Source: Pseudovirgaria hyperparasitica
Taxonomy: Eukaryota
NCBI GenBank assembly: GCA_010093815.1
Contig: ML996598.1
Length of the DNA stretch: 42,112 nt
Strand: one strand, 5' to 3'
In this document: in pieces, positions 2,762 to 34,223 of the stretch
How the letters are laid out: the number at the start of each line of letters is the position of its first letter
How positions within the stretch are numbered: position 1 is the stretch's first letter
Notes under the pieces: model-generated
The model's input: the letters and a program-made list of their open reading frames with translations, nothing else
Told to the model about the DNA's origin: nothing
Databases searched by the model: none
Position numbers and translations under genes: made by a program

Positions 2762-2802
2762 TTTTGATTCCTCTCTATATAGTATAACGGTAGCTTATAG
2801 AG

Positions 2803-8003: not shown

Positions 8004-8399
8004 GTGTTATACGGTTACTAGACGCGAAGAAAGTATAAATAACCATTTTAGAAACGCGACGCGATATACCATAATAGAATAACATAGAGGAGTCTAGAAT
8101 AGACTAACATGGACTATTATACACGAGAAAAACATAGGACTAAGAACCTAAAAAAAGGTACCCTACCATAGAATTAAACTCTTAACACGAAATATAAAAG
8201 GTTAGAGTATCTAAACCAATAACTACTAGGCCACTGGTTCGGGTACTCTAATGGAATTCATAGAGATAAACCAATTTATATGCGGTGCCTACACTTAGGT
8301 GACTTAAGGAAAATTAGAATATAGAAACCGATAGTTATAAGCTAAGTAAGCGCATATATAATATCGTTAAGTTAAGAATTAAATTACTAGAAACTAGCT

Positions 8400-9860: not shown

Positions 9861-10322
9861 CTATATATACACGTTAGCTAGAGATCTAAGGAAGGAATAT
9901 TCGTCTACCCTTAACGGTAATTAACGAAGCTAAATTAGTAACCGTAATAACGCGAATAGGTTATATTAGACCGGTTCTAATAAGAATAGACTACTATAGA
10001 CCCTTCTAAACCTAAACTAGGGAAGATAGTATATAAATTAACGACTTACCTTAAGAGCGAGGTGGATATACTAGAGAATAAAATTAAAGGCGAGCGAAGC
10101 TAAATATATACTCGACCAAAGTAGTAATTATATGTCCTAGGTAGTAGCCACGAAGCAAGGGATAAGCGCGTGTATAAACTAGTAAAAGTGAACTAGAATC
10201 TCGAGTTCACCTATATTAAGGATGGTTATAACGTTATAGAAACTTAGTTACGGATATATAGATACACGATAGATTATAGAGACTTAGGATTATATATACT
10301 TAAGTGCTTCGGGGCGAAGTAT

Positions 10323-10336
10323 AAAAAGAAGAAGGA
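10323..10336 (+). other. Polypurine tract of gypsy copy A
   Basis: AAAAAGAAGAAGGA three bases upstream of the 3' LTR. Confidence 0.85.
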
Positions 10337-10339
10337 TAT

Positions 10340-10577
10340 TATTAGGACGGGAACCATAATAGACCTATATAGACTATTCTAATCCATGCAGCCACGTAGT
10401 AGCTAGAGCTGGGTTGAGTTAGCTAAGTTAAGCGAGGTTACTATATAAGTAGACCGCACAAACCGATTCCTACTCGTTAGTAATTAACCTCGTATAAGAG
10501 TGAGATTACTCTATAAATACATTCCTATGTCTCTCTATGAACTGTTAGACTACTATCCCACGTCTTCACTCTTTATA
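10340..10577 (+). repeat. 3' LTR of gypsy copy A
   Basis: Colinear with 2524-2761; differences are almost all C/T or G/A. Confidence 0.95.
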
Positions 10578-10582
10578 AAATG

Positions 10583-10772: not shown

Positions 10773-10796
10773 CTAGGGTGGCCTATAGCCGGTAGG
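10773..10796 (-). terminator. Helitron 3' terminal hairpin and CTAG
   Basis: + strand CTAGGGTGGCCTATAGCCGGTAGGC, a GC-rich inverted repeat exactly where copia homology breaks. Confidence 0.8.
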
Positions 10797-11499
10797 CTAT
10801 AAGTAGCCTTAAATTCAAGGCTACTTTCCTAGAGTTCTAAAGGTATTAGTATCGTGGAGTAGAGTCTTATAGAGTATAGTATTATAGAGTAGAGTCTTAG
10901 AAAGAGACTATATTACATGATATATATATAGCCTTAGACCATAACTAAACTAGAGTATCGTAAGTTCTTAGCGATATATCTAAAACCTTATCCCTTATAT
11001 ATAAGTAGATAGCTAATAGATAGTCTTTATCTATTATAGGGAGGGAATAGTAGCTAATAAGAAAATTCTCTACCGTTAGTAGAATACTATATAATATTAT
11101 TACTAGTAGAATAATAGAGTAATAATAGAAATATATTCTATTTACTATAACTAAAGGTAGTACTAGTATTAATCTAGGGCTTATATTATATAGTATAAAG
11201 GTATCTCTCTACAATCTTATCTTTAGCTACTACTATTACTACTTTACGCTAGAAAGGCCCTTATTATTAAAATAACGAAGTAAGTTACCCCTTCTATTAT
11301 AACTTTATTTCTATACCTTCTATACCCTACTCTACTCTCTTAGACTACTATAGTAGTTATATAGAAGTAGAATAGCTATAGCTTAGTATAGTAAAAAGTT
11401 TTTATCTCTAATTTTCTTAACCTTAAAGTAACTTCTTCTCTACTCTTACACGGCTAATATTAAGTTATAGGCCCTTATACTAAGTAATCCCTACTATAA

Positions 11500-12480
11500 T
11501 AATAGTAATAGTTAACTATACACCTAGTAGCTACGCGACTAGTACTTCTAGTTATAGTAGAAGTAGTAGTAGTAGTAGTTATAGCCCTCTAAAGTAGCTA
11601 CTAAAATCCTATAATAATAACTACTATATCTTATCTAAGATAGAGAGCTTCTATAAAGATATTAATAGTAAGTATAATAAAGAGATTCTTTATAAGTTAA
11701 TCTACTATTATAGTAAGAAGACTATCTAACTCTATATAGCTAATAGCTATAAGAACTTTAAGGCGCGCCTTACTATTAAAAATCTAGAGCGTTTCTATGC
11801 CGGGAATAATACTAAGATTAAGAAGTTTATTCTAATAATAGCGTAGCTTAATATAATATCTCCTAGGCGTTATAAGGTCGATCTTAGCCGCCCTTACTTT
11901 AGGTACTCGGCTCTTATCTATATCCGCTCTAAGGTTACCGTAAAGGTATATATAACCTATTATAAGAATAAACGCTACTTTAAGTTCTACTATATTCCCC
12001 CCTCCGGCCTCTAGATATTATTTAGTTATAGTAGATATACTAATTATAGTATAGTTAGTAAGTAGTTGCGCTATTCCTTTATAGCTAATAAAAGTAAGTT
12101 ATATCTCTTTTAGTTATACTATAATAAAGATCTCTAACTAATAATTAGAAAAGCTAGCTAAGACCTCTATCTATACTAGTAAAGCCTCGTACTCTTATTA
12201 GTCTTCTACTACTTCTATATACGCTAGTAGACCCTTCTACTTATACTAGTTATCTACTATAAAGATAACCTCTAGGCTAGTTACGCCGTACCGTCTTATA
12301 AAGAAGTCTAATCTTTAGACTATCGCCTAGACTATTAACTCTAAGAATACTAAGGCTATATACTACCACGCCTATGAACTTCGCAACCTTATAAAGGAGA
12401 TAGAGAAATATACTAACGACGCTAAGGCTAATACTAACTTTAAGAGTTTCTCTAAGTAGATAGTACTATCGCTATATAGC
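11500..12480 (+). pseudogene. Intron-containing ORF remnant of unknown function inside the Helitron
   Basis: Long codon-like frame with only RIP-type stops (ESFYKD..NFKARLT..LERFYAG..YHAYELRNL). Canonical GTAAGT..CTAAC..TAG intron at 12094-12148. Confidence 0.55.
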
Positions 12481-13183
12481 TAGTTAGTTAGGGTAGTAGT
12501 AGTACTACTCTATATTATAACTATACTTCTATATAGATAAATACTAAGCTCTTTCTCTAATATCTATTCTATCTAGATATTTATTATAAGTATCGTGATT
12601 TTAAAATTTTTAGCTATATAGTTATAAAGTCTAGAAGATATAGCGCTAACCTAAAGGACAATAGTTTAGGGTATTAATCTTACTACTATATAGCGACGTA
12701 TAATATCTAAAATTAAAAGAAACTTTCTTAATCTACGACATTCTATAACATAGATATAGTAATTATTTAGCTCTACCGCTAGCGTAAATAATAGTAATCT
12801 CGATTTTAGTAGCTCTATGTATATTACCGTATCTACGACTATTATAGAGTATCTAAGCTTATTATAACTCTACTAATTAATATACGACTTAACTACCGTA
12901 GTAAATACATAAATATACTAGTAAGTATATTTTACAATAGATATAAGAGAATATTATATAAATAGAAGGTACGGTACCTAGGAAAACATCTAATTAAAAT
13001 ACTAGAAGTATAATAGAATTTAAATATAAGTAGAGATTAAGATAATTCATATTACGGATATAGATAATAGTTTCTATAATACCTATATAAAGAGCGATAG
13101 AACGACTAGAATAATATAGTATTAGAAGAGGAGGAAATACTTAAGACTATCGTAGAGTAGTTTAAATAAGACTAGTATTATAG

Positions 13184-16100
13184 CTAGGTAGAAAGGATTT
13201 TAGGGTATACGACGTTCCTTAGTATACTATCTAGTATATACTTATTATTATTAGGTGGGATAATATAGATACTCTTAGGGTTAGTAACACGGCTAATAGC
13301 GATATATAGCTAGCTATAGATAAATACCTCTAGGTCTAAGAGGAGGCCTATATTCTAAAGACTCTAGCCCTACGACTTATTAATTATTATAGTAAATACT
13401 AGCTTAACTAGAAATTAGTATTACTTAAAGTCTATTCTATCCTTTAGCTTCTCTATAACGAATAGTATCTATAGAAGTTAGACTATCTCTCTATATTATT
13501 ATATACTAAGAATCTACGCCGTAATAGTTCTAGTATTAATACTAGATACTCGAAGTCGTGTACTATTATAGAGATAATTACTTAGATTAATATTTTATAG
13601 TAATATTATAATATATCTAATCTTAAGTCGTAGCTTATATAGTAGAATTCCTAGTATCTTAAATATATTTATCTACTCGAGTATCATAAAGCTAGTACTA
13701 TTATTATCCTTTAGTTTATTAACCGAGTATTAGATTATAACTTCTCCTAGTATCTATAATAGTAGATATTTATTTAGTATATCTACTTTCTAGTTATATA
13801 TAGTAAGAATAGTAGATAATTAAAGGGCCTCTAAGGTAAGACCCCTAGGCTATCGTATAGTAGAAAAGATTCGGCTTACTAATATATCTAGGCTACGACT
13901 AGGTATAAAGTACTAGATACCCTAAGTAGTATACCTATTATAGCTAGAGCGATTTCTAATGTTAAGAACCTTTACTATAAATCGCTCTATCTTATTATAA
14001 CGACGCTCTATTATCCTAGGCGCCTAAAGACGTATATTTATAGTAAGGCGTAGTATATGGACCTAGGGCTAGAGATATAAGTTCTTTAGATATAATTAGA
14101 TAATCTATAACCGAGTACCACGTAGAATAATTAGAAGAGTCTATTAAAAGTCGCTGTAGAAGTACATTACTATACTACTAAACGCCTCTATATTCTAATT
14201 ATAGATATCGTGTATTATTTAATCTACTACCTTAATAAAATATTAATATAATATTATATACTTATTCTAGAAATATATATCTACGGTATAGAGTATACGG
14301 CTAAGATAGATACTAGCGCTAATATTATAGCTAGTATTACGCTCTATCTAGAGGAGAATCTTAAAATAGAAATATACTATTATAGTACTATATAAAAGAA
14401 TTATAGTAATACTAGAGGAGGTAGTTACTAGTATAACTTTCCTAGAAAGTCGTAGTATATCTAGTACTAGATTCTATACTAGTATCTTCTCTATTCTACC
14501 AGGCCTATTAAGAAAGAAGACCCCCCTATAACTAGCCTCTATAGCGCCTAATAAAGTATTATATATATATTACTACTCCTAGTTTAGACTAGGGAGATAC
14601 TATATAATAAACTACGCTAGGTTATTATAACGCTAGTTTATCTACTTATAAAGGATATAATTTCTATCTAGTATAGTTATATAGAGCTAATTAAAGGCTA
14701 GCGTAGGGAGTATAACACGGTTTATATCCGTTTCTATATACTAGAGATAGTTACGAATATAGTAGAGTACTAGCTTATATCGCTATATAACTATTAGCTT
14801 AGGGATCTAGAAGTACTTACGAAGCTAGTAGATATAGTTATCGCTAAGGGTATCCTTAAACTAGTTCTAGAGATCTCGATTACTACCTTAGTTATTAGCT
14901 TATACTATAATAGTAAATATCTATCGTAGGCCTACTATAGACGAAGTACCTATAATCTCTATAAGTGCTAGCTAGTATTTACTATTATTATAGAGTAGTC
15001 CTTATATAGTATATATATCACGGTATATAGAATATACTATACTATTATATATTCTTATATTATTAAATAATACCTACCTAGGGATATAGAGAAGTAGAGT
15101 TCGTAGATAGAATACCTCTCTAGCTATCCATGGTACCTAGAGTAGATAACTAATTAAGAACTTACCGCGTCGCTTACGCTATACCTTATCCTAGATCTAG
15201 GTATAATACTAGGGAAACTCTATATAATAGAGTTATAGTAGCCCTACGATAGCACGCTACTAGTTTATAATAAAGAACTTAGTTAGTATTATATTCCTAG
15301 CCTACGCCGGGATAGATATATTCCCTAGTAAGTTATTATCGCTATATTAGAAGATAACCATTTACTAATTCTTCTTATATATAGTAAGTATCTATATAGA
15401 GGGGAACTAGCTATAGAATAGTAGACTTATAATACCGTAGATAGCCTTATAGCTAGAGAGATAGTATATATTAATAAAGACCTTTATCTTATTAAGAATC
15501 TAATTCTAGGGAGGATACTCTACGCTAGTACTACGATAACTCTATTACTACTAACGACTAGCTTAAGTATAACTATTACCACGGCCGCGATGCCGTATAC
15601 CACCTATATATATCTACTACCCTAGGTCTAGATATAACCTAGAAGGATTTAGGTTATTGCGCTATATAAGGATATTTACCATATCTAGGTCCTTATATAT
15701 ATACTTAAATATATACTTAAACACGTCTATACTATAGTACGACTTAATATTAATATATATATTATACCGTTTTAAAAGGTAAGGATTATATAGCACGATA
15801 TTATAACTTAAGTAGATATACTAATTATTATTCTTCTAGTAGATATATACGCTAGCACGACGCTAGTAGAATAGCTCTTTTCTAACTAGTAGTAACGTCT
15901 TATTTATATATAGAAAGAGAAACTAATAGTAATACTTACGGTAACTAGAATATCTCTTACTTATTATTATATATAGACTTAATAGATTTACGTTACTATA
16001 AGGCCTATATAGTATAGTATAATAGATAATTCTAAATAGTACTAGATTAGAGCTTAGGTCTAGGAGCTCTATATATATAGCGGTATTGATCTTTTTAATA

Positions 16101-16520
16101 GAAGTAGCGCGATTATCTAGTATTATAATAATAAGAATATAGATATATAGTAGTCTACGCTTCTAAAACTTAATAGAGTAGTAGTACACGATATACTTTC
16201 TAAGGATATAGCTCTTTATTAGATTATATAGAAGCTATACTAGCTTTATATAGAAAACGCGATAGTAGAGGTTAATTTAGTCTATTACTAATTCTTCTAG
16301 CGCTAGCTTATCTATTACCTTACGCTAGGCTAGGTTATATATTATAGTAATAAAGAACTCTAGTAGCCTACTATACACCGCCATAGCTATTATATTAAAA
16401 TATAGCTCTTATATAAACTAAGGCCCGCTATAGAAAGTCTTTCTAAGTATAATAGTACTTCCTACATTAGGAAAGATACGGCGCTTCCAAGTACTTCTAA
16501 GTACTCTCTAAGTATTCTTT
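13184..16520 (-). pseudogene. Helitron Rep (HUH-Y2) plus PIF1 helicase
   Basis: Reverted motifs in order: GGPRFMQELYFDAMA..FFITMTCNPAW..RVF (~16255-16435), IEFQKRGLPHIHIL (~16135-16175), VPYNPYLLKRYNxHINVE..FKYVFKYIYKGPD (~15685-15797), FFLDGPGGTGKT (~14483-14518), QFPVKLAFAMTINKSQGQSL..HGQLYVAISRV..RNVVYPEIL (~13190-13416). Confidence 0.95.
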
Positions 16521-16587
16521 TATCCTATTATATTTATTAGGCGGATCTACTTACTATCTATCCTAATAGGACGGCTTTATATAATTT

Positions 16588-16713
16588 ATACTAAGTATCC
16601 CGCTTATATCGAACGTCCCGTTTATACCGAACGTACTAGTTATACTAAACGTCCCGTTAGTACCGAACGTACTAGTTATACTAAACGTCCCGTTTATACC
16701 GAATGTACCGTTT
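16588..16713. repeat. 18-bp tandem repeat, 7 units (ATACCGAACGTCCCGTTT-like)
   Basis: Units start at 16588, 16606, 16624, 16642, 16660, 16678 and 16696. Confidence 0.85.
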
Positions 16714-16864
16714 ATACTAACGGGATAATTAGTACTAGTTATTTTCTCAATACTAATTAGCTTACTAGTACTACTTATTTACTATATACTAATAACTCTT
16801 ATAGAATAAATAGTATCTAGTATTTTAGCTTCTCTATCTACTCTATCTACTCTATCTACTCTAT

Positions 16865-17049
16865 NNNNNNNNNNNNNNNNNNNNNNNNNNNNNNNNNNNN
16901 NNNNNNNNNNNNNNNNNNNNNNNNNNNNNNNNNNNNNNNNNNNNNNNNNNNNNNNNNNNNNNNNNNNNNNNNNNNNNNNNNNNNNNNNNNNNNNNNNNNN
17001 NNNNNNNNNNNNNNNNNNNNNNNNNNNNNNNNNNNNNNNNNNNNNNNNN
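16865..17049. other. Assembly gap (185 N)
   Basis: Run of N, preceded by a CTCTATCTA short tandem repeat. Confidence 1.
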
Positions 17050-17549
17050 TTTCTAAAGTAATATCTTTATCTAAAGTATCTCTATAACTCTATATATCTT
17101 ATTATTCTAAATTATATCTTTAGTATATTTAATTATAGTCTTTAAATTTAATACTAGAAAGATAATATATAATAGAGAGTAGAGGTTTAAAATTAATTAG
17201 ACTAGGAACTTAAATTAAATAGTACTATTCTAAGCTCTCTCTAACTATATAGCTATAATAAAATATAGTAGACCTTCCTTTCTTCTATCTTTAGGCGGTA
17301 TCCTTTATCTATTAAAAGGTATTCTTATCTAGAACTACCTTTAATAACCTTTTCTCCCACTAGATACTTCCCTCTATATTTCTAGTTACTATTTTTATTC
17401 TCTCTTATATTATCTATTCGGCCTCGTGGTAGTCTATATAGTTCCCTAGTTATATACTAATATCCGACTTCTCTTAAAAGTATATACTCTTTATATATAG
17501 GTTAAAGACCCGACTTAAACGTCCGCTACTATCTTACTTTATTTTAATT

Positions 17550-18500
17550 TAAGTATTAGTTAGGGTAGATAGACTACTAGTTAAGGTAGCTATAACTAGG
17601 GATAATAAGTTAGTAATAGACTTATTTATACTATATATATATATACTATTATTTACTATTCCCGCGGTTACTTAGAGCGGGTCTATACTTAATATCTAAG
17701 ATAGTATAATCTTATCTATAGCTACTACTAGTAGTATAGAACTCTTACCTATATCTAATAGTATATAAGATAATTCGAGGTACTTATCTAACTAGTTTAG
17801 AGTATCTAACTTATTCTTTTTATAGTAGTTAGTATCTATATAGCTTCTATAACTTTAGTATATACTTATATTATCTAATAGCTTAGACTCCTTGCTCTTA
17901 TCTAAGTTATCTATATCTACTTTAGAGAAGTTATCTAGGTTATCTTTATATAGGTTTATATATATAGTATCCGGGTTAATTAGTATTAGTACTATAAATA
18001 CTAATACTATTAGCGATTTTTAAATATAGTCGATATAGTAGGGCGCCTAGTTCGACTATATTAGGCTTAGTACTTACTATTTCTCTATATAATTTAGCAC
18101 GCGATTAGATAAAGGTATATATATATACCTAGTATTAGTAGAGAGTATACGAATCTATAGCAACTAAAGGATGAGTTTAGCGCCCGCCTACTACTATATT
18201 TATTAAGGGTATATCTTATTATAATATATATAATAGTAATTATAGATAGTAGAATCAGTCGGAATATACTACTATAGTACTCCTTTAATCTAAGGAATCT
18301 TAGGGACTATAGTAGAACTAACTTTAGAGCCTTAATTACTACTAGCTCTATAAATATTTTCCGAGTTACGCTAGTATTATACTAATAATTAGTAATATAT
18401 CTAATACGATATAAGTAATATACCTTTACTTCTATATACGCGTTATTATATATTAGATTACTTATACTAGCTTTTCTCTTCTCAGCTATCTTCTAGTCCT
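17550..18500 (-). pseudogene. Possible degraded ORF, unknown product
   Basis: Minus-strand frame with few stops (LINPDT..DNLDNFSKVDID..LDKYLE); no family confidently recognised. Confidence 0.3.
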
Positions 18501-19649
18501 AGTATTTAGATACTATCTATCTAACTCTAGAGAGGAGTTAGTAACGGAAGTCTATTATATCTTCCTTTACTAGCGTAATAATATAGACGGGAGATATATT
18601 TTATAAATTATAATTAAGGTAGTAGCTACTAAGATTAATATCTCCGGCGGCTATCTAGGCCGATTATACTAGTATTCTAAAACTATCTAGGCTACTATCT
18701 AGCTATATATTAAGGCGATTAAATACCAGTAGTAACCAGCCTAAAAACGTTATAGCAATTAAAATCTCTATTATCATAAGGTAACGGTCTCATTTATAAG
18801 ACTAGAGACTATCTCTATAGAACCGCCTCTTTTCACGGATAGTTAGTTCCCTCTCTACTACTATTTCTCTATCTTTATCTATTAAGCTAGATAGCTAATA
18901 TAGTAGAGGAGAGGACGTAAGACCGTTATATCCCTAGTTACTATTATAGTAGAATATTACTATAACGTCTAAGCTATATAGGGCGTTACTACTATATTCG
19001 CTACTAGTATACCTAGACTACTAGATTATTAGTAGGTAAACGAACGCGTTAAGATAAGCTAGGTATATATATATACGTTTTTTATATTAATAGCTATTAT
19101 ATAAGTCTCTATTATTAATACTAATACGTGTCTATATTATATCGTATCTTTATTTATCTATCCCGTTTAGTTTACTATAGTTACTAGATTATCTTCTATT
19201 AGTATTACCACTATAGTAGCTAGATAGTCCCTTAACCGTCTTCCGTGTTAGAGGTTCTATAGAGAAGATATATAAGAGATTAGTAGATATTTTTATTAGC
19301 TATAGATTAGTAACCTACTAGGCGATAATATTAGGTAGTAAAATAATAACTAGCTAGTAGATATAATAAAGGTTTAGACGTAGACTAATATAGTATTTTT
19401 ATAGACGCGTAATACTTACACGTTATTATTAATAATTTTAAGTAAGCATATATAGGAATTAAGGGGCTAAGAGCTAGGTAGAAGTTAAGGGTTAGTAGGT
19501 ATATATCGGGCTTTCGACGGGCTTACACCTAACTTCTTCTAGTATATACCTAGAATATTTACTATATACCGTATTATTACTATCTACTAATAATTATACT
19601 ATAGTATTTTTCCTTTATAGTAACTATATCTTAAGATACTATAGGCCGT

Positions 19650-22600
19650 AGTCTTCTACTAATACTATAGTAGAAAGATTAGTAGTATATACTATATAAT
19701 CTATAGGTACTATAACTTAGAACTATATAGACGAGTACGGCTTACCGCATTACTATTATTATTATAACTATTAGGCCTATAGCTACTACTATTAACTAGG
19801 TCACGGCGTGGCTTTAGTACTTATAGTTATATTAATTAATAGAACTCTTTAGTTCGCTCTATTAGTATTTAGCCGTTAAGTATTAATTAGAAGTCTAAGT
19901 CTATAGAATTAGATATATCTACTACTAATACAGCCCTATATAAAGATACTACTATATTCTCTAATTCTATTTCGGACCTAGAATCTATAGACGGCGTTAC
20001 TAGTAGCTATAGTACTAATTTAGTATATTAGTCTAATATATATTATAGAAATACTATATCTATAGTAACGAGAGCGTCTAGTACTATATATTTAATAAAA
20101 ATGTTTAAAGAAGAGAGCGGTATATATATTATAGTAGACTAGAGTAGACGTGATAATCCGTCCGATGTAAGTATATATAGTCTAGGTTTATAGTAGTAAC
20201 TAATTTAGTAGGCCCGATTTGGTTAATTTAATAGTAAGTTTATAGAGCGCCTTATAATATAGATAAATCGGTTTAGTATTTTAAATATAGTATATAATAA
20301 ATTAACTACTATCCTTAAATAGACTTCCGCTATACCCCCTAATCTTTATATACTAAAATCTAATATTATATATAAGTAGTTATTATACTACTCTAAAGGG
20401 ATACCGTACGAAAGTTAGTAGCGTAGCTATAATATATTTAGTACTACTATAGTTAAATACTAGTATAGGGATCCGCTTATATTAGTAGAATTTCTTCTTA
20501 GATACTAACTATTTACTAGTAAGCTCGTGTTTAAGTTAGTATAATAATTTACTAGTTTAGATAACCGGGTATATAGTAAAGCCTATATAGTAGATAGTTA
20601 GTAGGATATATATACTACTATTCCGGATAGTACCGTTATTATCTCTATTATTTTATCTTTAGATAAGATAAACCTTACTAACCATAGTAGTAATAGAGTA
20701 GTATAGCTAGTCTATCTATCTATTTATAATCTACTACTAAACGTCCGCTTATCTAGGAGTCTACTATTATTTCTACTACTTACTCTATTACTAGTAGTTA
20801 AGCTAGAAACGGTAGCGAATCGCTTTATATTCTATTAGGTTATAAGTAAAGTTCTAGCCTATATATCTATCTATAATAGAGTCGTTAACTATACTAATTA
20901 TTATATAGTATTATAGACTATATAGAATACTAGAGTATTAGTATTATATACTAATAGCGGCTTATATAAGTACTATCCGCGTTTAGCTTTATATATTATA
21001 GATTTTCCGGAGTAGGTACTTATTACGGGTATATTCTATTAGTATATATATCTAATATATATAGTCTCTAGTAATAGATAATAGTATCTATAAGAAGCCA
21101 TTACTAGTATATAGAAGTTCTATATATACTCGTCGTTATAGAAATAGATTTACTATATATATTATAAGTTAATAACTAATAGCTACGGTAGTAAGTATAC
21201 TAGTAGTAAGATAGATAATAGAACGAGTATACCTAGTGTCTTATTATTTTCGTCGACGTCTTTCGCGCTAGTAGTATAGAGCTATTATATTTACTAATTA
21301 GTTAAGAGTTAGTATTCTAGTAGGTAGATAGAGCTATTAGATAATTTCGCCTAGTTACTTACTAGAGTTAATATATACCACGCGGTCGCTCTAGACATTC
21401 TATATTAACTATATAAGGGTATATTAGAATACACGTTTAATTAGATAGTCTCGTATATTATTAATTAAGAGTATATAGAACATAGATTAAAGGGTGTATT
21501 TACTAGTATACCCCCTATAGAATAAGTAAAGAAGGTAATTAATAAGCGATTCGCGTCTATTAGAGCATTTAGTTATTATAACCTACTTATATATATAACT
21601 TTAGTAATATAATAGACGGGGGCAATATTTAAGTGTATACTAGTAGTATTTATAGTTACATTTAAACCGCTTCTATATTATAATCGATACTTCCTAAGCG
21701 TAGTACGGGTGGTTATATAAGGAGGTAGGCTCTATATACTAACTAACTACACCATAAAAGGACCGAATCTTGAAGCTACTACTTCAAGGGTGGAGCACAC
21801 TACTTATATACGACTACTACATACATGTATAATTAACTGGCAGGCCACGTGCTCCTCACGTGCCTAACATTATCCCCCTTTTCAAAGGCGCGTGTCCTTA
21901 CGCGTCGTGGGCATACTACCTTACGAAAGATGAACTAAACTAGCCGCAACGGGCCTAGTATAAACCATGTACATATATAACCAATACTCGTAATGCCGCC
22001 TCTAGTACTAGACACGCTAACTTACCGTAGTAACGTTACTACTATGTTATCCGTCACGTGCATAAAGCACACGTAACGTGGTAAGCTAAACGGAATCGTG
22101 CGAAATTCAATAACGGTTGACTAGACCGAGAGTTAAACCCGTGACCCCGTAGTAGCTTTAAGATTATATAAGGAGGTGGGCTCTACGCACTAACCAACTA
22201 CACTATAAAAGGACCGAATCTTAAAGCTACTGCTTTAAGGGTGGAGCATACTACTTATATACGACTACTATATACATGTATAATTAACTAGTAGGCCACG
22301 TGCTCCTTACGTGCCTAACAGGTTATTAATATATATATATTAGCGGCGTACTATATATATAATATATAGATACTAGTATACTTAGAAGAGGCTATATTAC
22401 GCTTAGATAATCTAAAATACTAGTTTATACTATATCGTGGAGATAAATTAGAGGATAATCATTTTAACTTTCCGAAGTTCCATGTATTATTATACCTAGT
22501 TAATACTATTAAATACTATAGTTTATTATATCTAATATTGGTAGAGCTACTAGAGTAATCTTATATTATAGTAAAGAAATTATATTAAGGTTTAAATAAG

Positions 22601-23570
22601 AGGGAGACGTTTCTATAGTAGATACTAGTAGTAGATATATATATAATGAATACTAAAATCTCTAGTAGTATAGAGGTAGCGGCTAGTACTAGTATATTAG
22701 TAGCCCCTAGCCTAGAGTAGCTTAATAATATATATAAGCTAGTTAGCTAGTAGCGTATTCTAAAGAAGCTATACTAGAGTAAATATATACTCTACGTCTT
22801 ATAGAGCTATAGACTATCTATATTCTACTAGACTACTATTAGCGACCTCTATAATATATATAGTAGTAGTTTTATATTATTTAATATAGTTATACCTTTT
22901 ATACGTAACTATCGTAATTAGCTTATTAGAGATAATATATTAAAAGATACGAATATTAAATATATTAAAAAGGACCCTTATAGACACGGGTCCTTTCTAT
23001 CTATATATATAAGACTATATATATACTAATACAACTAGATAGAGATATATCTATAGAGGCCTTTAACCTAATTTAGATAAGGTATATCTATAACTAGTAA
23101 AAGAGTAGTAAGGCTAGGGAGAATTATATAATAGTATAGAAGTTTAATAAGGGTAGTAACTACCTTAACGGGAAGCGGGTTAGTAAAGTCTATATATTTC
23201 TAGAGATATATAATACGGAGAGTATCGACGTAACTAGTAGTATAGTAGCGCGATTCCTAGGTATATTAGTTAAACTACTTAATAACTTGGGTAGAGGTAA
23301 TATTAATACTATTAGTAGTCTTATACTATTATATATAGTAGGTTAAAGGTCTAGTAATAAGACTCGTACGATAGATAGGTTCCGTGTCTACGAGCTAGAG
23401 TATATTCTATACCCTATATAGATTATATTACGTTGGTTAGTTATAGATAGTTTATTCTAGTTAGATATATATAGTAATTAGAGGATCTATAATAAGATAT
23501 ATAACCTAGACTTCTAGGCTATAAATAGACGAAATATAACTATAGCGTTAAAACACGGGTACGTATCGTA
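19650..23570 (+). pseudogene. Plavaka-type (CACTA/EnSpm-related) transposase, interrupted by a TRIM
   Basis: Reverted motifs YRDPL..FLLGHQPF..RVYSEA..WW (~20464-20605), IPIILSSDKTNLT..WPVYLSIxN (~20641-20730), ADFPEQ..CPxC (~21000-21060), PDILHQLHKG (~21392-21420), QWTG, and after the TRIM HFNFPKFH..E..H..K..Y..SNK (~22460-22600). Start approximate. Confidence 0.85.
21716..22320 (-). mobile_element. 605-bp non-autonomous LTR element (TRIM)
   Basis: 154-bp direct repeats at 21716-21869 and 22167-22320, GGTTA duplication at 21711-21715 and 22321-22325, minus-strand PPT AAAAGGGGGA next to the left LTR, 297-bp non-coding interior. Confidence 0.93.
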
Positions 23571-24017
23571 AGTCTATCGCTATCTACTACCGCCTACTAT
23601 AGTATACTAGTATATACCGGTATATAGCGGAAGTAATGGTTTATATATAGTAGTACTCGATAGTTATATTCTATACTAGAATATCTCTAAGGAATAATCG
23701 TGGTTTATTATAATTAGTTCTATAATAGACTTATATTTAATAACTATCTATAATTTTAGCTAAGGAGTATCTAGGGATACACCTCCTTATTATCTAATAA
23801 TTACTAGCTAGTATAAAAACTCCACGCCTGTAAAAGGGGTATATAGAACTAAAAGGATTCTTATTTACGGGTAGAACTAGATACGGATAGTATTAATCTA
23901 ATATAGATAGATTATATATATTAATACCCTAAAATCTAAACTATATCTCTAGGCCTACTAGACCTAGCTTATATCTAATTCTAATATTTTTATTATCCGC
24001 GTTTATACCTTATTAGA

Positions 24018-24145
24018 TACTAGGTATATAATAAGTCTATAGTTAAGTAAGTATTAGATACGTAACGAGTCTATTAATAAATAAGTACTAGGTATATAAT
24101 AAGTCTATATAAATAAGTATAAATAAGTATATACTAGGTATATAA
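24018..24145. repeat. Short dispersed direct repeat TACTAGGTATATA(TAATAAGTCTATA), three copies
   Basis: Copies near 24018, 24086 and 24132. Confidence 0.6.
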
Positions 24146-25099
24146 CGCTCTTACTAGGGAAACGTCTTTCTTAAGTATCTCCCTCTTCTAATATTTCTTC
24201 TTCTCTTTCTTTATTCTTTCTCTAGCCTTATAAGTATAGTTAGACTTATATTACTATATTATTAATATATATATTCTTATATAGACCGTTAGAAACTACG
24301 GTAACTAGATATACGTTCTTATAATAGATAAATATACTATACTAATATGTCGTATTGTTCGTGTTTAATATAAGGGTTTACTACTATAATTATTTATTAT
24401 TACGCTTGTCTATCTCTTCTTAATAATAGTACTAATTAATAATAATCTATTATAGAGATAATAGTTAGTATTACGTACTTCTCTTAAATATTTATATATT
24501 AATATTATATAAGTATATACTTTGCGGAGGTCCTCTATCCTTCTCTTAAGCTACCTAGACTATTCTCTAATTACTAGAAACTCTTATATCTAACTATTTC
24601 TACTATTTATTCCTTGGTTCTACTTATTAGGCTTTAAATAATAGCGAACTATAATAGATTAGTAGTTATCTATATTTCGTGTACGCCGAGTTAGTATACC
24701 TAAATATAATAGATAATAGTATATTTATAATAGTATATACTAGATCTTATAGTATTCCTCTTTAACGGTAGATCTATATAGTTATAAAGACGGTCTACTA
24801 TTCTATTATACCTATATACTACGCTACTCTTTTATTATATATAGATAGTATTACTAGAGTAGAGCTATTATCTATTATACTTAATATTATATATAGAGTA
24901 TTATATATTTAATATCGTTATTTCACGTGCTCTATATTAGTACGGGATCGGATACTAGTTATATATTTCCCCGCCTCTATTAAATTAACGAGTTATTACT
25001 AATAACTATACGGACTACTTATATCGATATAGCCGTAATATACGTGTTATATCTACGTCTATTATATAGAGTATATATATTATCTCTCTATTACCCTAG

Positions 25100-27050
25100 T
25101 AATATACCCTATTCTCTATTCTATCTATCTATAGCTACGTCTAGCTAGCCGCGAATAAATAGCCGAGTAGAAGTAAGTCTCAATATACTTTATATATTTA
25201 GGGCGTCCGATAGGTAGAAACTTCGGGTATATATAGAAGAGTTAATTTAAGAGGAATTTACTAGTCTATTACTAAACCTACGTAGTAAGGAAGTAAAGGA
25301 CTACTATATAAAACGAGAGTATTACCTCTAGATAGTCGCGGATAAATATATATTTATTAATAGTAGTTATACTATTTTATAGATAGATACTATATATTAA
25401 CTTAATACTATATTCTTGGTATTTACGCGTAACTAGCGGCGGTTAGCTAAATACTATTATATATGTTAAAACGATGCCCTAGGCTAGACGAGCTATTATA
25501 ATATTATATATACTCTATAAACCCGTCTAATATATCTAGCTAACCTAGTTATTCGACTATCGGACTACTAGTATCTATATCTTCTAAAGTAGCTATGCTA
25601 CCGTGTTATATATATATATATATCTATAGTCCTTATCCGCGATCGTACTCGGGTTACCCTAGTACTAATAACGGCTATATAGAATAGCACGACGCTATTA
25701 AATATTAAGGGTATAAAAATATATAATATAGTAGGTCTTAGTATAAATAAACTATTAGAATTTATTAGCTTATCTATAGATATACTAGGGGATATAGATA
25801 GTTATAGGCATGGTCGCGTCTACCTAGAATACCCGATTCTACTAAGCGAGTCGAGTAATATAATCCTTTATAAGGATAGTTTAGACTAGGTATTATAGTA
25901 GGCTATTAAATAGATACTAGGCTTAGGACTAGATTAGGTGGTTTTCCGCGTAGGCGATATAAACGGTATATTTAGAAGTCTACTATAATATATTAACTAT
26001 AATCTAACTATATAGGAACGTCGCGCTATAAGTATAGTAGTAGAATTTCTCTATCTAGCGCGCGTAGATAAGCTCGAGATATATATACGCTAATAGATAT
26101 TAGTATATATTAATATATTACGACTACTAAGCGGTATATTTTAATATATACTAGTATATCTAGTATATACTAGTATAATGCTATCGCTCTTCCGTAGACC
26201 TAATACTATTTATATATCTTAGGTTTTCGGTTATCGGTTACGTATAGAGTTATATATATAGTAGATACCTTACTAGATTTAGGTCTTTCGTCGATAGTAT
26301 ATAGATATACCCTAGTCTACTTAATATAGGCGTAGTTAATACTTTATCTACTTAAATAATAGACGTTAATAACGACGTAACTAGTATATTTATCTATTAT
26401 ATTATTAGCTAGCTAATATTATATTAGGAGAGTTAAGCGCCGCCGTTCTATCTACTCTATCTATTAATATTAATATACTAGTAATTATAACCTAATCACC
26501 TTATAAATTAATATATAATATTAGTATACTTAAGAGTTTAAGCGAACGTATAAAAGTCTAATATTATATACTATTTAGGGCCGGGGAGGAAGCGTCTACT
26601 AGTATAGTAGTTATTAAGGCGATAGTAGAAGTCTATATATAACTAGATATACTAAGTCCGCCTTCTTCTTATATAGTTCTATCGCTAGATAATATTACTA
26701 GTTTTAATATTACGGGAGAGGAGTTTATAGACACGAACCTATAAATATTAGTATAATATTAGCTTAATAGTACGTATTATAGTATAAAGTAAGTTATATT
26801 TAAGTAGTAGTTAGACATGTACGCTAGTATACTAATAGATATATAGTATCTCTACTATAAATAGAATAGGTAAGGCATAGCTAGTAATATCTTACTATCT
26901 AGAAGAGATAGTTACTATAGAATTTAGAAGATAGGCTTAGCGTCTATAGTATTAGTATATTAGATAGCTAAACTTTTATATAATACTATTTACTTATATC
27001 TATATTTATCTAAGCTCTAATTTAATAGCCTTCTATAACGTACTATATAC
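25100..27050 (+). pseudogene. Degraded ORF of unknown function
   Basis: More than 1 kb in one codon-like frame with RIP-type stops only (FRASDR..EEL..HGRVYLEYP..VVFRVGD..EFLYLARVDKLE); no family recognised. Confidence 0.45.
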
Positions 27051-27426
27051 TCGGTCGGTAAGCTACTAGACTTATATAATAGTAGTATACTACCCTACTT
27101 TATATACTACTTAAGCTACTATTACTTTAGTCTATATTAATCTTAGCTTCCTTTAGTCGTCCCTATATTATAAAAGAAAACTTCTATAAACCTTTTCTCT
27201 ACTTATCTTGGTTTTTAAACCTAAATCTTACCTTCTATACTTTATTCCGTGTTAATTACGACTGTATATAAACGCTATATTAAACTTAACTCTATTAACC
27301 CTTAAGGTCCATTCTATATAATAGTTAGCGAGGTTATATTTATAGTTTATAGTATAGATTAAGAACTCGTTATATTTAGTAATATTTAGAACTAGTCTAT
27401 ACTTAATATAATTAAGTCTTATATTT

Positions 27427-27660
27427 AAGCCGAGTCTTACGTTTAAGCCGAGTCTTACGTTTAAGCCGATCCTTACGTTTAAGCCGAGTCTTATATTTAA
27501 GTCGAGCCTTACGCTTAAGCCGATTCTTACGTTTAAGTTAAGTCTTATATTTAAGCTAAGCCTTACGTTTAAGTCGAGCCTTATACTTAAGCTAATTCTT
27601 ATGTTTAAGCTAAGCCTTATATTTAAGCTAATTCTTATATTTAAGCTAAGTCTTACGCTT
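27427..27660 (+). repeat. 18-bp minisatellite, 13 full units (AAGCCGAGTCTTACGTTT)
   Basis: Exact 18-bp periodicity; variation is mostly C/T and G/A. Confidence 0.93.
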
Positions 27661-30600
27661 AAGTCGAAGCTTATAATATAACTACTATCTTAATCGATAA
27701 TAAACTACTCGTCTTTAGTATACTTACTAGTAACTACTATTCTAACGACGAGTATAAACTTAAGAAGGTCTAAAGTAGTAAGGCTCCCGTTTCTACTTAC
27801 GCTATCTATTAGATCTCTCTTATATAGAGTAATCTATAGTTAACCTTTAGGAATATCTATAGTATTAGTAGAGAAATAGATAGACTTAAGTAGAAATAAG
27901 CGAAAACTTAAGCTAAGCTTAAGCTAGTAGTATTTAAGGCTCGTGGTAAAGGTTATAGCTTTAAAGAGTCGATTAGTTATATATATAGATTCCTTAAATT
28001 CCCTAAGTACTACTCTTAGATTAAGTTATATACTCGCTTCTAATAGATTAATAAAGAGAAATTAGTATCCTTAATAAGCTTACTCCGCTTTAATCATACT
28101 AATATCCTTCTATTATCCAACTACCCTACAGTATAGATCTTTAAGATTAAGTAAGTAGATAACTTTATTAAGTATTTTTCTAAACTTTCTAATCTTATTA
28201 TAAGCGAAGCAGATAAAGCTAATATACTATATACTAATACTAGCCTCTACGAAGACCCTTATAACTTTTAGATTATTAAACTTATAGCTAGCGAGCTTCT
28301 TAGTATAGGTTTTACTATTCTATTATATATTAGACCTAATATAATATATAAATAAGTAAAGTAATTCTTCGAAGATCTAGGTACTTATACTATAGTTTAT
28401 ATCTTACTACCGCTACGTAACTCTATAGATCTTACTAACTTTAATAATAAGCTTAAACTAGAGAGTAATCTAATTAATTCATAGTATATAGGAGTTACTA
28501 CTCCCTATATATAATACGGTATAATAAGTAGACTAGACACTTAGCTCTAGATCTCTATTCTCTACCGCGAGTTATTTAATAAGAAATTTAACTATCTAAT
28601 ATATATTACTATAAGTACCTTATAAGACGAATAGACGGATCTTCTATTATTCTAATTCTAAGACGTTACTATTAGATATATCTAGCTCTTAGGTATTACT
28701 CGGGCGCTCTTAGCTATCGTCTATTCTATTAATATAAAAGGATTCTATTATATGGAACTAGGTAGTTATGGGTACCTTAAAGTAGATTTAAAGAATTATA
28801 ATAACGATATATACCGCTTTAAAGTCCTTTAATTTCGTCTAGGCGTCCTTCTATTCGAATACCTTACTCTAAAAGTCTTTAATAAGGTTAGGCGTCCTTC
28901 TAAAGTATCTAAGGTACTAATTATATTAATAGATATAGTTACTAATATAACTTAAGCTTATCCTAAATATTTTATTCGGACTAGTAACACTAGTTTAAGT
29001 ATAATTAGGTCGTCTCTTACTACGCTTATAGGGTTTATAGACGTTCCGGCTTTAGTTAGTATATAAATCTATAATAAGCTTACTAAGTAATATATTAATA
29101 CGTGCTAGAAACTAACCTACTACGCTATATAAGCTTCTAGAGACGGCGGCGTAGACGACTATACTACTTAGGATATGTTTAATACGATAGTCCTTAATAT
29201 TATTATAGACTTAGTATCTATATCTCTAATATATAGGTTCTCTAACTCTAATAATAAGATTCTAGATTATAGTATAGAGCCTTAGAATACTCTTATTACT
29301 CTTTCTAAATTATCTATATCCCTAGATAATAATAAGGATATAAATATAGAATATAGTTACGATATTATTAGTAACGAAGGTTCTATTACTAGCCCTATCG
29401 CTAATATATATATACTTCTAATATTATCTAAAGTCTACTCTAGTATCCTATTCTCTTTACTACCCTCTATATAGAATCTAATACTTAGTAATAACTACCT
29501 AAATCTTTAACCTGTCGACTATAACCACTACGTTAAAGATTATAAAAGATTCTATAATCTCTAGAATATTATATGTTTAGAACTATCTCCCTAATAATAG
29601 TATATCTATATATAGGCGACGGACGTACTTAGGGCTTAGTTTCTACTTTATAGCTATAGAGGAGCTAGAAAGAGCTATTTATAGCTTTATCTACTACTAG
29701 CTATACTTCTAATTAATAAAATAAATAGTACTTCTATTATCGCTTATACTACTAAGGTAGTTATTCTATCTAGTAATGTAATAGTATACCTCCCTATACT
29801 AGGTTCTACCTAAATATAGAGAATATATATATATATATTATTATCGGCCTAACTAACGAAACCTATAACGACGCTATAAGAAAAGTATATAAATATATAA
29901 GTAATATATTTACTTACTATAAGTCTCTAAAGACACTAGTTATTCTTTAAAGATACGCCGAAGCCGTTAATTAAGAGGTTTTCTTTACTATAGCTAGACT
30001 ATCTTATTACGGTAACCCTCTTATTAGACTAACCTAGAATAATATAATAGGCGGTACTATCCTCGTGTAAGCTTAGGCTAACTATAGTAAATAACTATCG
30101 GAATATAGTACGGATCCCTATACTTATCTATAGGAACTATATACTAGTTACGTTACGCTTAAGGTTATTAGACTTATTAAATCTTAATACTAATATAAAT
30201 AGATCCCTAAGAATTTCGAGAAAGAAACGGCTTAGCTATTATATACTATCTATAAATATTATACTTATAATAAGGATATATCTAAGGAGAAGTATAATAG
30301 GATAAACGAGCTATACCTCGCTACCTAGGACCTAGTTACTATCTATGCCTAGATTTATATAGGGACCCTATATATTATAAATATCGCTAAGGTAGTCTAT
30401 AATATATATCCGATTTTAGTTATAATAGAAGAGGCTATATATATCCTTAAAAGTAATATACTTAGGATTATTATTAATTATACTACTATAGAATAGTAAC
30501 CGACATTTATTTACGTTAGTAACCTACGCTAGCTTAATACCTACTAGTATAATAGTACTAATATATAGGCCGCGAACTAGAGGATCTCCTTTATAAAGCG

Positions 30601-31666
30601 CTAGATATAATATAGCTTCCCGACTACTTACCTTACCAAGTTAGAACGCTTAGTTCCTAGAATAATAAATATTATATTACTAATTACTTACTTAGGCGAG
30701 CTAACAACCTCGCCCTATATAACGAATAATATTAATATACTACTTATAGAGACCGTTTAATAAATATTTAGAATCCATAGCTATTAACACGTTATATACG
30801 CTAATATTAATAGAGATTACGTGTATACGGTAAATAACTTAATATATAATATAGACTTATTACGTTTTACTTAGTAGATCATTACTAAGCTACTCTATTA
30901 TAGCGTTATACTTAATCGTGTACTCTATATTTCTATATACGCTATCTAACGTAATCTATTTAAAGGGATAGTTAGGAACTCGCTTCTAACTATACTTACC
31001 GTAGCGGATAAAGCTTAATTTAATACCCTACCTAAGCCGGTATAGAAGCTTATCTAATGGCGTTTATAGAACGGTTCTTAGGGTTATAATAATAATATAG
31101 TCCTTATCGACCTAGTCTAAACTAATCGCTTCGGCTTCCTCTTAGAAGTAAACTATAATATCGTTACTATTACGCGTGCTAAATAGATAATAGTTATTAT
31201 TACTAACTTCGTATCTCTTAAGAGGTAGAAAGTCCTAGATAGCGTACTTAGCGAGATATAGAATAAGTACTCTAAGATTTATATAATATATATATATACG
31301 ACCCCCGACCTAGATAGCCTCCCTCTACTCTCTAATATATCTAATTACTAATATAGTTACTCTATACTTAGTATTAGAGAGAGAGAAGAATAAAGTAATT
31401 AATAAACTACTAATAGTACTAAGCCCTATAAGCCGCTAGTCTACTATAAATATAATATTAAAGAATATAAGTCTATTAAGTATCTAAGAGGGTCGACACT
31501 TATATCTAATAACTATTAGAATATTAGCTATAAAACTAATATTTACCCTAAACCCAAGACGCTTATAGGTACGTTTTATTATAATTATAAGACTACTAGT
31601 TATACTTAGCGTTATTATTCTAGCCGTACTAAATTACTAGCACGTATAAATAGTAATAATCTAGTT

Positions 31667-31750
31667 AATACTACTAGAGCTAGTACTACTAGAGCTAATA
31701 CTACTAGAACTAATACTACTAGAACTAATACTACTAGAGCTAATACTACT
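31667..31750 (+). repeat. 15-bp tandem repeat (AATACTACTAGAGCT), 5-6 units
   Basis: Visible periodicity in the tail of the helicase ORF. Confidence 0.85.
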
Positions 31751-32799
31751 AACGAAGTAACTACTAGCGGCTAGGATAATAGAGACTATAAGGATACCGA
31801 CCGAGACGGCGGTATTATAATATATAAAGATATAGAAGTTAATTAGTAATAGTATACGATTAGACTTATATATTAGGGCTACTTAGTTACGGCTTCTTAG
31901 TAAGTATATCTCTATATCTATTTTAGATATAGTCATAATATCCTACTAGATAGATAGTTTAGCTCTATTAAAGATCTATTAAGGGTATTTCTATTACGTC
32001 TACTCTAGTATAGATACGCTATTAGATAATATGGCGCTACTAGGCACGTTAACTAGTATCTACTAATTAAGAAATAAATATAATTCTATATCTACTACGA
32101 GCCCCGGCCTAATAACGTAGACTTCCTTTAGTTATCCCCTTTATACTTTTAAAACTACTTCTAGCCTTTATATTAGAAGATATTACTATCTAAAGAGAAA
32201 ATATAAAAAAATATACACTCTAATCAAAGCCCCCACCTTTAGACTTTAACTATAATATATATAGAATATAGTAAACCTAAATATCGCGTACTTTAAAAGT
32301 ATAGAAGAATATAATACTTAAATATAATAAAATATAGGCGCACGATACTCGGAGAGTACCTAGGGATAAGTATATAAATATAAAATGGGATAAGACTAAC
32401 GTAGTACCTTATATATATATAGCTATATACCGTCCTAGACGTAGTCGCCTATAATATAATATTATAAGATAAGAATTATAGCTATCTAATTCTATTAAGG
32501 ATATTAGATAATATAAAGTAAATAACTACACGCCCGACTACGCCACGCTAAGCCACGTATATATTATAAACGTGTATTCGAGGAATAATAAGGATATAAA
32601 TAAGTTTTATCTAGTAGGTACCTTATTATTCCGGCTTCTATCTCTATTATCTAATCTATATCTCCGTCTTCCTCGCGCCTATAATATACTATATATATAC
32701 TATATAATTAGTCTATAAATTATAAATACTATATTAACTATATATATTAACTATATATAATTAATATATCGAATCTAATTCTATAATAAAGTAACCGTC

Positions 32800-33630
32800 G
32801 GAATATAGTAATTACTATAGTACTACTTTATATCTTAAGTCTAGATATATAAGTAAAGTATAAAGCTATAGAGGCGTGTATAAGGTAGCTATATATAGAA
32901 GTATATATAGCTACTCTACTTATAGACTATAGATATTAAACTAAGAACGAGCTTAGCGTAAAAAGAGCACGTAAGATTATTAATAAGATAGCGGGTAAAT
33001 TCCTAGTAGTATAGAAAAGAGTAGTAGAGTATATAGAGATAAAGGCGCTATACTATATCTACGACTAGGTACGCACTACAGTATAGAAAACTATATATTA
33101 TAGAAAAACTATCTCCGAGTATAAGAAGAGACGTATAATTATAGCCCTATATTCTATAACCTTATAATCCCCGTCTATTATAACCTTATAACCTCCGCCT
33201 ATTGCAATCTTATAACCCCCGCCTATTATAACCTTATAGCTCTTATATACCACGACCTTATAGTCTATACTTATAGCGGTCCTATAGTCTACTAATATAT
33301 ATACTATAAGAAAAATCGAATTTATAATTAGGTTCGACGATAACGTATTCCTTAAAATACTAGTACCTATATCTAACTAGTAGAAAGATTATAGCGACGC
33401 TTCGTGTATTAATTTAGTAGTATTTATATAGTAAATTAGGGTCTAATACGTAATAAAGACTAGAAGGGCACTTAACTAGAGCTATACTACCATATATTCT
33501 ATTATACTACTAGTTAAGTATATAATAAGTAAAATAGAACTAGAGGTAGATATTAGATAGCTCCTATAGTTAGTAATTAAACATGTCCTAGAATATAGTA
33601 ATAGTATAATACTTCTCGGCCTTAGATAGA
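32800..33630 (+). pseudogene. Degraded ORF of unknown function containing a 21-bp tandem repeat (~33155-33240)
   Basis: Codon-like frame (KYKAIEACIR..KRARKII..KIEFIIRFDDNVFL) with about four ATAACCTTATAACCCCCGCCT-like units. Confidence 0.4.
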
Positions 33631-33704
33631 ATATAGATAGTAATTAAACATGTCCTAGAATATAGTAATAGTATAATACTTCTTAGCCTTAGATAGAATA
33701 TAGA
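33571..33704. repeat. 67-bp tandem duplication
   Basis: 33571-33637 is repeated at 33638-33704 with only a CG>TA difference. Confidence 0.9.
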
Positions 33705-33942
33705 TAGTATACTAGAAGCAAAACGAAATATAAACTAGTAACTAATATATAATAGTATAGATAGCTATATATAGGTTATACTTAAATAAATCCGCCCCTC
33801 CGTCCCTAATACTATACTTACTATAACTAGTATAATAATAGTAATAGAAAGCTACCACCTATGATAGTAGAGATACCTATAGAGATAGTATTATAGATAG
33901 TAGATAGTATTACCTAAACGACTCGACCCTTTCTCTAGTAAT

Positions 33943-34182
33943 TGTTAGGGCTAACACTAGGATAGACTTAACTAGAACACTATGGTCTAGTACGGTCCGT
34001 GACAGGTGGACCTAGGGTAAGCCAGCTAGAATAAGCGAGACTACTATATAAGTAGGCCGTATACACTTGATTCCTACTCTTTAGGAATTAACCTCGTTAA
34101 GAGAGTAGACTACCCTTTTAAATATATTCCCGAATCCTTCTATGACCTATTAGACTACTATTCTACGTCTATAATCCTTATA
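33943..34182 (+). repeat. 5' LTR of gypsy copy B
   Basis: TGTTAGGG...CCTTATA followed by TTTTGATTCCT; matches 40739-40978. Confidence 0.93.
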
Positions 34183-34223
34183 TTTTGATTCCTCTTTATA
34201 TAGCACGACGGTAGTTTATAGAA

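Follow-up and report, generated by a model that had tools for sequence, protein, structure and literature searches.

Plavaka transposons belong to the CMCT clade (CACTA/EnSpm-Mirage-Chapaev-Transib), and it is with this lineage that we compare here a block of high-copy DNA in a 42,112-bp stretch of contig ML996598.1 of the ascomycete Pseudovirgaria hyperparasitica (GenBank assembly GCA_010093815.1), the whole of which is called the window below. According to the accessible text of PMC12730594, the source also for the clade, Plavaka termini read TGT..ACA or CATCA..TGATG, with target-site duplications (TSDs) of 2-3 bp, and described families may carry a TET/JBP gene; for truffle (Tuberaceae) elements the available part of PMC12581995 gives CATAC termini and 2-bp TSDs. 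As far as these two sources reach, termini and TSDs were assigned recently, mostly in Agaricomycotina and truffles. One survey, in its accessible part, counts helicase among the accessory domains for recognising fungal DNA transposons. In the literature searched and the text accessible, no link between Plavaka and a helicase was found, TET/JBP being linked instead; an Agaricus paper that came up deals with RecQ helicases and has no bearing on the matter.

The block to be described extends over at least 17 kb and lies to the right of a broken, low-copy Helitron. The original prediction, made from the sequence letters, had read the interval from 10773 to 33942 as a single Helitron with cargo, longer than 23 kb, that combined a Helitron enzyme with a Plavaka transposase or, as a fallback, as a large Plavaka element lying within or next to the Helitron. 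The interval is most likely a stack of nested insertions, inactivated afterwards by RIP (repeat-induced point mutation), and not a single element, and we moderately favour reading the block as one large cut-and-paste Plavaka-type transposon with a helicase. In this respect it resembles the described Plavaka elements by a match to the profile PF18759 well above the cut-off, and by being a multi-gene DNA element with an accessory gene beside the transposase. It differs from them in that the accessory gene is a superfamily 1 (SF1) helicase, that of the described elements being TET/JBP in the accounts accessible, and in that the host shows classical CpA RIP.

Large CACTA/En-Spm elements exceed 10 kb, hold more than one open reading frame (ORF) and have subterminal repeat arrays. 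The block is similar to these in its length of more than 10 kb, in having more than one ORF and in the tandem arrays near one end; unlike them, it is without a demonstrated CACTA-type terminal inverted repeat (TIR), and its transposase is of the Plavaka lineage. The Helitron to its left shares with Helitrons and Helraiser (PDB 7lcc) a Rep nuclease joined to a PIF1-type helicase within a single frame as well as the 3' hairpins, the CTAG and the host T, whereas it lacks the N-terminal third or so of the protein and the 5' terminus, and is interrupted and RIPed. On the level of genome architecture, the repeat families of Stagonospora nodorum, in the part of PMC3017866 that was available, likewise comprise layered long terminal repeat (LTR) and DNA insertions with extreme RIP indices, and multi-gene repeat units recognisable only via less-mutated copies; the main unit in the present window has a Plavaka transposase together with a Upf1-like helicase, and not genes of the Rad5/Rad6 type.

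Copy depth across the interval

Contigs from two public runs (X1 and X2) of one sample, which contain about 55% of the sampled words of 17050-27049, were placed on 14100-34099 at a likeness of at least 80%. In X1, the summed depth of the four bins of 14100-16767 amounts to 1059, 1665, 2321 and 12576, the first three bins extending to 16100, and it rises from 2312 at 16336 to 15,979 at 16794, i.e. by a step of about tenfold which is located left of the assembly gap (185 N). From 16768 to 33442, depth stays at 15.2-25.8k in 22 of 25 bins; two of the three higher bins represent a 608-bp unit at 21.4-22.8 kb (37-43k), and the third a tandem array at 27.4-28.1 kb (30k). The profile of X2 has the same shape, with about 0.9-1.4k for the Helitron body and about 7-11k for the block. 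A bin of the gypsy LTR that follows on the right reaches up to 54k. Relative to the block, depth is 0.1x for the Helitron, 2x for the 608-bp unit and 2.5x for the gypsy LTR, and the block itself, along its 17 kb, varies by about ±25% at most in the two runs. In the Helitron body, individual contigs have depths of 244-374 and a given place is covered by one to three of them; over single places in the block, 5-22 distinct contigs were found, in accord with the earlier view that these genes had once been multi-copy.

A tenfold step beside an equally RIPed neighbour can hardly be accounted for unless two repeat families meet here. Thus, the right-hand block is taken to belong to a repeat family other than the Helitron, about ten times commoner. 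The notion that all parts form one repeat unit with one copy number had to be given up (1.0-2.3k over 14100-16336 versus 15-25k over 16794-33442). Because the Helitron homology stops and the depth steps up, the Plavaka/helicase block is taken to be mostly present without this Helitron, which comes close to a situation that the original prediction had itself named as speaking against its reading, that of Helitron copies occurring apart from that block.

The N gap had been thought to prevent any proof of linkage. Contigs were found to join across it, from 16858 to 17050 (depth 6080/3473; side 27/42, 42 in X2), where 17 letters intervene, and from 16864 to 17052, where 22 letters intervene, the latter at the single-copy-like depth of 249/221 (side 30, tool criterion 31). 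Since contigs join across the gap, it is small and its two sides belong together, and the worry is largely removed. With 17 or 22 letters in the contigs, the length of 185 N is probably far too long. Two further joints, from 16148 to 32726 and from 16411 to 22217, were disregarded, with sides of 23-24 being under the tool criterion.

Genes in the block

The window is of RIP type from end to end, with TA/AT of 1.3-2.1 and (CA+TG)/(AC+GT) of 0.03-0.58; between 11 and 34 kb the corresponding values are 1.48-2.01 and 0.03-0.31, at a GC content of 0.25-0.33, and the heavy RIP foreseen for the interval is evident. Because no more than four frames in the window run for 100 codons or longer without a stop, protein analysis was carried out on frames read through stops. 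A stop-density map proved noisy and served as a hint only, and a codon-usage log-odds model trained on three known frames was discarded after failing leave-one-out tests. In the six frames of 10501-34701 (24 frame-segments, E ≤ 0.01), Pfam recognised Helitron_like_N, PIF1 and Plavaka only, and no reverse transcriptase (RT), integrase or further transposase domain. The giant elements named Starships are defined by a DUF3435 tyrosine-recombinase 'captain' gene at one end; no DUF3435-type hit was obtained in the same six frames, sensitivity being low in RIPed DNA. Rfam and tRNA scans across the window returned no match.

The Plavaka transposase announced in the original prediction is present. PF18759 is matched over profile positions 40-236 of 325 with an E-value of 7.8e-16 and 58.6 bits, the cut-off being 26.3. 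The transposase shares the plus strand with the second gene of the block, a putative helicase of the Upf1 type, whose SF1-like motifs are readable in the plus-strand frame of 28502. An exhaustive phmmer search with 29582-31381 against 1.84 billion representatives gave two hits only, with E-values of 8.9e-5 and 8.9e-4, both of which are helicases of the architecture AAA_11+AAA_12, one of them named DNA2/NAM7 helicase-like (Penicillium). When the frame was compared by BLASTP with the other match, two colinear high-scoring segment pairs (HSPs) with E-values of 7e-8 and 8e-8 appeared across motifs II-VI. In the six frames of 28500-33941, no Pfam family was detected for this helicase even at E ≤ 10, and phmmer found no PDB match for its frame. 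The Upf1-like helicase of the original prediction is weakly confirmed: the phmmer hits and the HSPs bear it out, Pfam does not, and an SF1 helicase of Upf1-like kind at 30410-31183 is accepted as probable. A string resembling the Walker A motif G..G.GK[ST] was absent from every frame of 10.7-34.1 kb, the PIF1 helicase included; as it is missing even for PIF1, it can be rationalized that RIP has erased such motifs.

Of the six or seven gene remnants counted earlier, three are backed by homology (the RepHel frame of the Helitron, the Plavaka transposase and the SF1 helicase), and two more low-stop frames are without a match. The long frame upstream of the helicase core (27750-29600), for which phmmer found no PDB match, may be the N-terminal region of the helicase gene. 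The minus-strand frames at 17252-19101 gave chance-level PDB hits only in phmmer (sodium-channel beta-1, E 0.009) and no Helraiser match.

Extent and internal repeats of the block

The left end of the block lies somewhere within 16466-16794. Its right end and terminal repeats are out of sight because a gypsy LTR cuts the block at 33943; position 33942, the right border given in the original prediction, marks the insertion point of this LTR and not an element end. In the zone of 16466-16794, several RIP-compatible candidates for a Plavaka-type terminus occur, none of them unique. A transition-tolerant Smith-Waterman comparison of the left edge with the reverse complement of 33000-33942, in search of a TIR partner, yielded long low-quality alignments only, and a RIP-degenerate search for an inverted copy of the 18-bp subterminal unit yielded no full match.

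The best supported loose ends of contigs within the block, at 18395, 25019, 25611 and 28952, carry C/G where the window has T/A and therefore represent less-RIPed copies of the block, not breakpoints. They indicate that the sequenced sample contains copies of the 17-kb block with fewer RIP mutations, on which a deRIP consensus could be built.

The 608-bp unit, bounded by terminal direct repeats, is much less RIPed than its surroundings and has about twice the summed depth of the block; the joint from 21749 to 22206 corresponds to its solo form. The extra copy depth makes it likely to be a small element of its own within the block, and it may be a miniature terminal-repeat element. Further tandem arrays inside the block are located at 27415-27667, 31666-31767, 33155-33238 and 33565-33740, with units of 18/54, 15, 24 and 67 bp. 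The array at 27415-27667 gives rise to the region's only long stop-free frame (27252-27689, minus strand), a repeat artefact.

The Helitron remnant

Helitrons end at their 3' side with a hairpin a few bases ahead of CTRR, start with TC at the 5' terminus, and insert between host A and T without a target duplication. The minus-strand end found here reads ...GTAGCCTTgaatttAAGGCTAC..TATAGCCtaccGGCTATAGGCCACCCTAG, with its last base at 10773 and the host T at 10772; the hairpin TATAGCC/GGCTATA is placed 11 nt ahead of the CTAG (10776-10773), and the last 60 nt fold with -13.9 kcal/mol (z -4.11), a value attained by none of 200 shuffles. At this 3' side, the CTAG is followed by T and a copia codon is split as GA/T, which fits the A/T target of Helitrons; the 5' junction is outside the window. 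That a Helitron 3' end splits the RT of a copia element, as the original prediction held, is hereby corroborated.

The assignment of a Rep-PIF1 protein to this Helitron was correct as well. A single minus-strand frame contains Helitron_like_N (E 2.2e-6) and PIF1 (E 1.2e-15), and the same frame matches the Helraiser transposase (PDB 7lcc_A) across Rep and helicase with an E-value of 1.5e-57, residues 134-405, 459-673 and 757-1204 of the query corresponding to 487-748, 753-963 and 1030-1469 of Helraiser. Homology starts at query residue 134, which corresponds to about nt 16465; the stretch of 133 codons upstream of it (16466-16864) consists of tandem-repeat DNA and is not protein-like. The N-terminal part of RepHel and the Helitron 5' terminus are missing. 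One contig of single-copy-like depth (241/248, side 90) runs to 16593, continues with CTAG and restarts at 16468, which suggests a 126-bp tandem duplication of 16468-16593 that either has been collapsed by the assembly or belongs to another copy.

The flanking retrotransposons

The copia element into which the Helitron inserted is recognised by Retrotran_gag_2 (5e-8), gag_pre-integrs (1.4e-5), rve_3 (1.3e-4) and SH3_retrovirus (1e-9), with domains at 3-2525. It is interrupted by a Ty3/gypsy chromovirus (copy A) with RVT_1 (3e-19), RNase H, integrase and chromo domains, whose LTRs of 238 bp are 91.5% alike (2526-2761 to 10342-10577 in self-blastn). A 5-bp target duplication, AAATG, stands on both sides (2519-2523 and 10578-10582); being clean and inside copia, it establishes the order of nesting, copy A into copia. 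Beyond copy A, the copia plus-strand frame resumes, reads ...KARxVARGFLxKYRI and breaks within the GA/T codon. This fragment matches RVT_2 at profile positions 2-44 of 244 with an E-value of 2e-4, under the curated cut-off and in the place expected. As RVT_2 was absent from all six frames of 17050-34701 (E ≤ 0.01), and gypsy sequence follows from 33943, copia does not resume inside the window, in line with what had been noted before.

On the right, 33930-42112 aligns to the gypsy element in self-blastn, a contig loose end occurs at 33941, and the LTR start reads TGTTAGGG. The first copy (B1) is 80.6% alike to A, and between the second (B2) and the start of B1 the likeness is 91.6%. At 40739, B2 opens with a full LTR start, and there the alignment of B1 with A halts (A position 9366) without a preceding polypurine tract; therefore, either B1 is 3'-truncated or B2 inserted into B1. 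The features of the window are compiled in Table 1.

Table 1. Features of the 42,112-bp window, in order of position, with the evidence for each
Feature	Position	Strand	Evidence
copia-type LTR retrotransposon, 5' part, RIPed	1-2523	+	Pfam gag, pre-integrase, integrase, SH3
Ty3/gypsy chromovirus A within copia	2524-10577	+	LTRs 2524-2761 and 10340-10577; self-blastn, Pfam
copia resumed, first ~45 RT residues, broken in the GA/T codon	10578-10772	+	RVT_2, sequence
Helitron 3' terminus: two hairpins, CTAG, host T	10773-10832	-	sequence; DNA fold
RepHel ORF remnant (Rep nuclease and PIF1-type helicase), single frame	13253-16465	-	Helraiser 7lcc_A, Pfam
Tandem arrays (18/36-bp units, then 9-bp units), left edge of block	16586-16864		Tandem Repeats Finder (TRF)
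High-copy repeat block of 17 kb or more, probably a single large Plavaka-type DNA transposon	16794-33942	+	flat depth in X1 and X2
Assembly gap, 185 N	16865-17049		contigs bridge with 17 or 22 letters
Two low-stop reading frames, no recognisable homology	17252-19101	-	6-10 stops per 150 codons, as low as the Rep frame
Plavaka (CMCT-clade) transposase core, RIPed	20440-21036	+	Pfam PF18759
608-bp unit, 157-bp terminal direct repeats 91% alike	21713-22320	+	self-blastn, sequence, depth 37-43k
Long low-stop frame upstream of helicase core	27750-29600	+	stop density; no homology
Degraded core of a probable Upf1/DNA2-NAM7-like SF1 helicase, motifs II to VI	30410-31183	+	phmmer, tblastn, BLASTP
Ty3/gypsy copies B1 (33943-40738) and B2 (40739-end), of A's family	33943-42112	+	self-blastn; truncate block

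Origin of the interval

The terminus of the Helitron, the domains, the step in depth and the bridging of the gap are observations; that the 17 kb constitute one element, and that this block has inserted into the Helitron, we infer. The sequence of events would have started with a copia element receiving the first Ty3/gypsy insertion (2524-10577, with the AAATG duplication). A Helitron would then have entered a GA/T site in the RT of the same copia, on the minus strand and with its 3' end at 10773, and would in turn have been broken in the N-terminal region of RepHel, at about 16.47-16.79 kb, where the far commoner repeat unit starts. This unit would continue for at least 17 kb over the N gap, until the second gypsy copy cuts it at 33943, and would carry the Plavaka (CMCT-clade DDE) transposase, the same-strand Upf1/DNA2-like SF1 helicase, tandem arrays and at least two further ORF-like frames. 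On this account, a Plavaka-type transposon may have reached tens of copies and been destroyed by RIP thereafter. The depth step and the breaking-off of the Helitron favour what had been the fallback of the original prediction, a large Plavaka element inside the Helitron or adjacent to it. Tentatively, one may go further and envisage an autonomous transposon of the Plavaka lineage, more than 17 kb in length, which would encode a Upf1/DNA2-like SF1 helicase of its own along with several other proteins and would have reached tens of copies (roughly 1 Mb) in an ascomycete competent for RIP, with less-mutated copies surviving.

Several points weigh against a single Plavaka-type element with a helicase. 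The depth derives from short contigs of one sample, and summed contig depth is not copy number; moreover, the depth data begin at 14100, so the 3' part of the Helitron (10773-14100) is without a figure. Flat depth is no proof that the 17 kb form a physical unity, and no termini, TIRs or target duplication were found for the block, whose right end is outside the window. The helicase call, weak as it is, would stand on an E-value of 9e-5 and is invisible to Pfam, and the minus-strand low-stop frames at 17.3-19.1 kb sit where a continuing RepHel N-terminus could be.

Along these lines, the block might consist of two or more independent elements of like abundance, for example a Plavaka of about 6-10 kb adjacent to, or nested with, a separate helicase-bearing repeat, a reading we consider unlikely. 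No termini link the parts, the depth over 22.8-27.4 kb falls about 20% below that of both sides, the tandem arrays (27.35-27.67 kb, 31.67-31.77 kb) could be element edges, and the 608-bp unit is demonstrably nested at 21713-22320. However, neighbouring families differ two- to tenfold in depth, and the block varies by only about ±25% along its 17 kb in either run; in addition, a second transposase, an RT or an integrase was not found in the Pfam scan, and the loose ends of contigs are not breakpoints.

It is rather improbable that the block is no transposon itself but a RIP-degraded segmental multi-gene repeat, i.e. an endogenous gene cluster that has been amplified and in which a Plavaka copy is embedded. 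RIPed multi-gene families with helicase genes are known from a Dothideomycete (X3X3R8, in the accessible part of PMC3017866), and homology of transposable-element type is lacking over most of the block. The family X3X3R8, on the other hand, has nine copies according to the same part of that source, as opposed to the tens suggested by depth here; the block adjoins a truncated Helitron ORF, as an insertion would, and transposase and helicase lie on one strand.

A single cargo Helitron of more than 23 kb, the first reading of the original prediction, would need its 5' end beyond the window and a depth step caused by many deletion derivatives devoid of RepHel, and it appears very doubtful. The severity of RIP is similar left and right of the step, the window shows no Helitron 5' end and no resumption of copia, and the frames at 17.3-19.1 kb could be the missing N-terminus; yet these frames have no Helraiser match, a weak negative given the poor conservation of Helitron N-termini. 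Some 400 bp of tandem repeats break the ORF exactly at the point where the homology ends, about 16465, the depth jumps about tenfold and then stays flat to 33442, and the derivatives in question must have lost RepHel only while retaining 17 kb. Finally, a wrong join across the N gap, with Helitron and block not being genomic neighbours, can nearly be dismissed: a 185-N scaffold gap between tandem repeats might invite it, but the depth step is left of the gap and contigs join its two sides, from 16858 to 17050 (side 42, X2) and from 16864 to 17052 (depth 249/221; side 30, criterion 31).

Significance

The whole stretch is an ordinary nested RIP graveyard, and the chimera of Helitron and Plavaka, an attractive but wrong idea, is now removed. 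Contig depth can separate nested repeats where no genome is at hand. Within this graveyard, the block probably holds a new, large, helicase-bearing member of the Plavaka kind, and attention is drawn to a large, abundant and poorly characterised Plavaka-type family with a helicase. The block may account for a sizeable share of the AT-rich compartment of this genome. A RIPed, high-copy, helicase-bearing relative would extend the host range and the gene content of Plavaka and, if the reading is true, a cut-and-paste transposon assisted by a helicase, within the RAG/CACTA-related clade, would represent an undescribed architecture.

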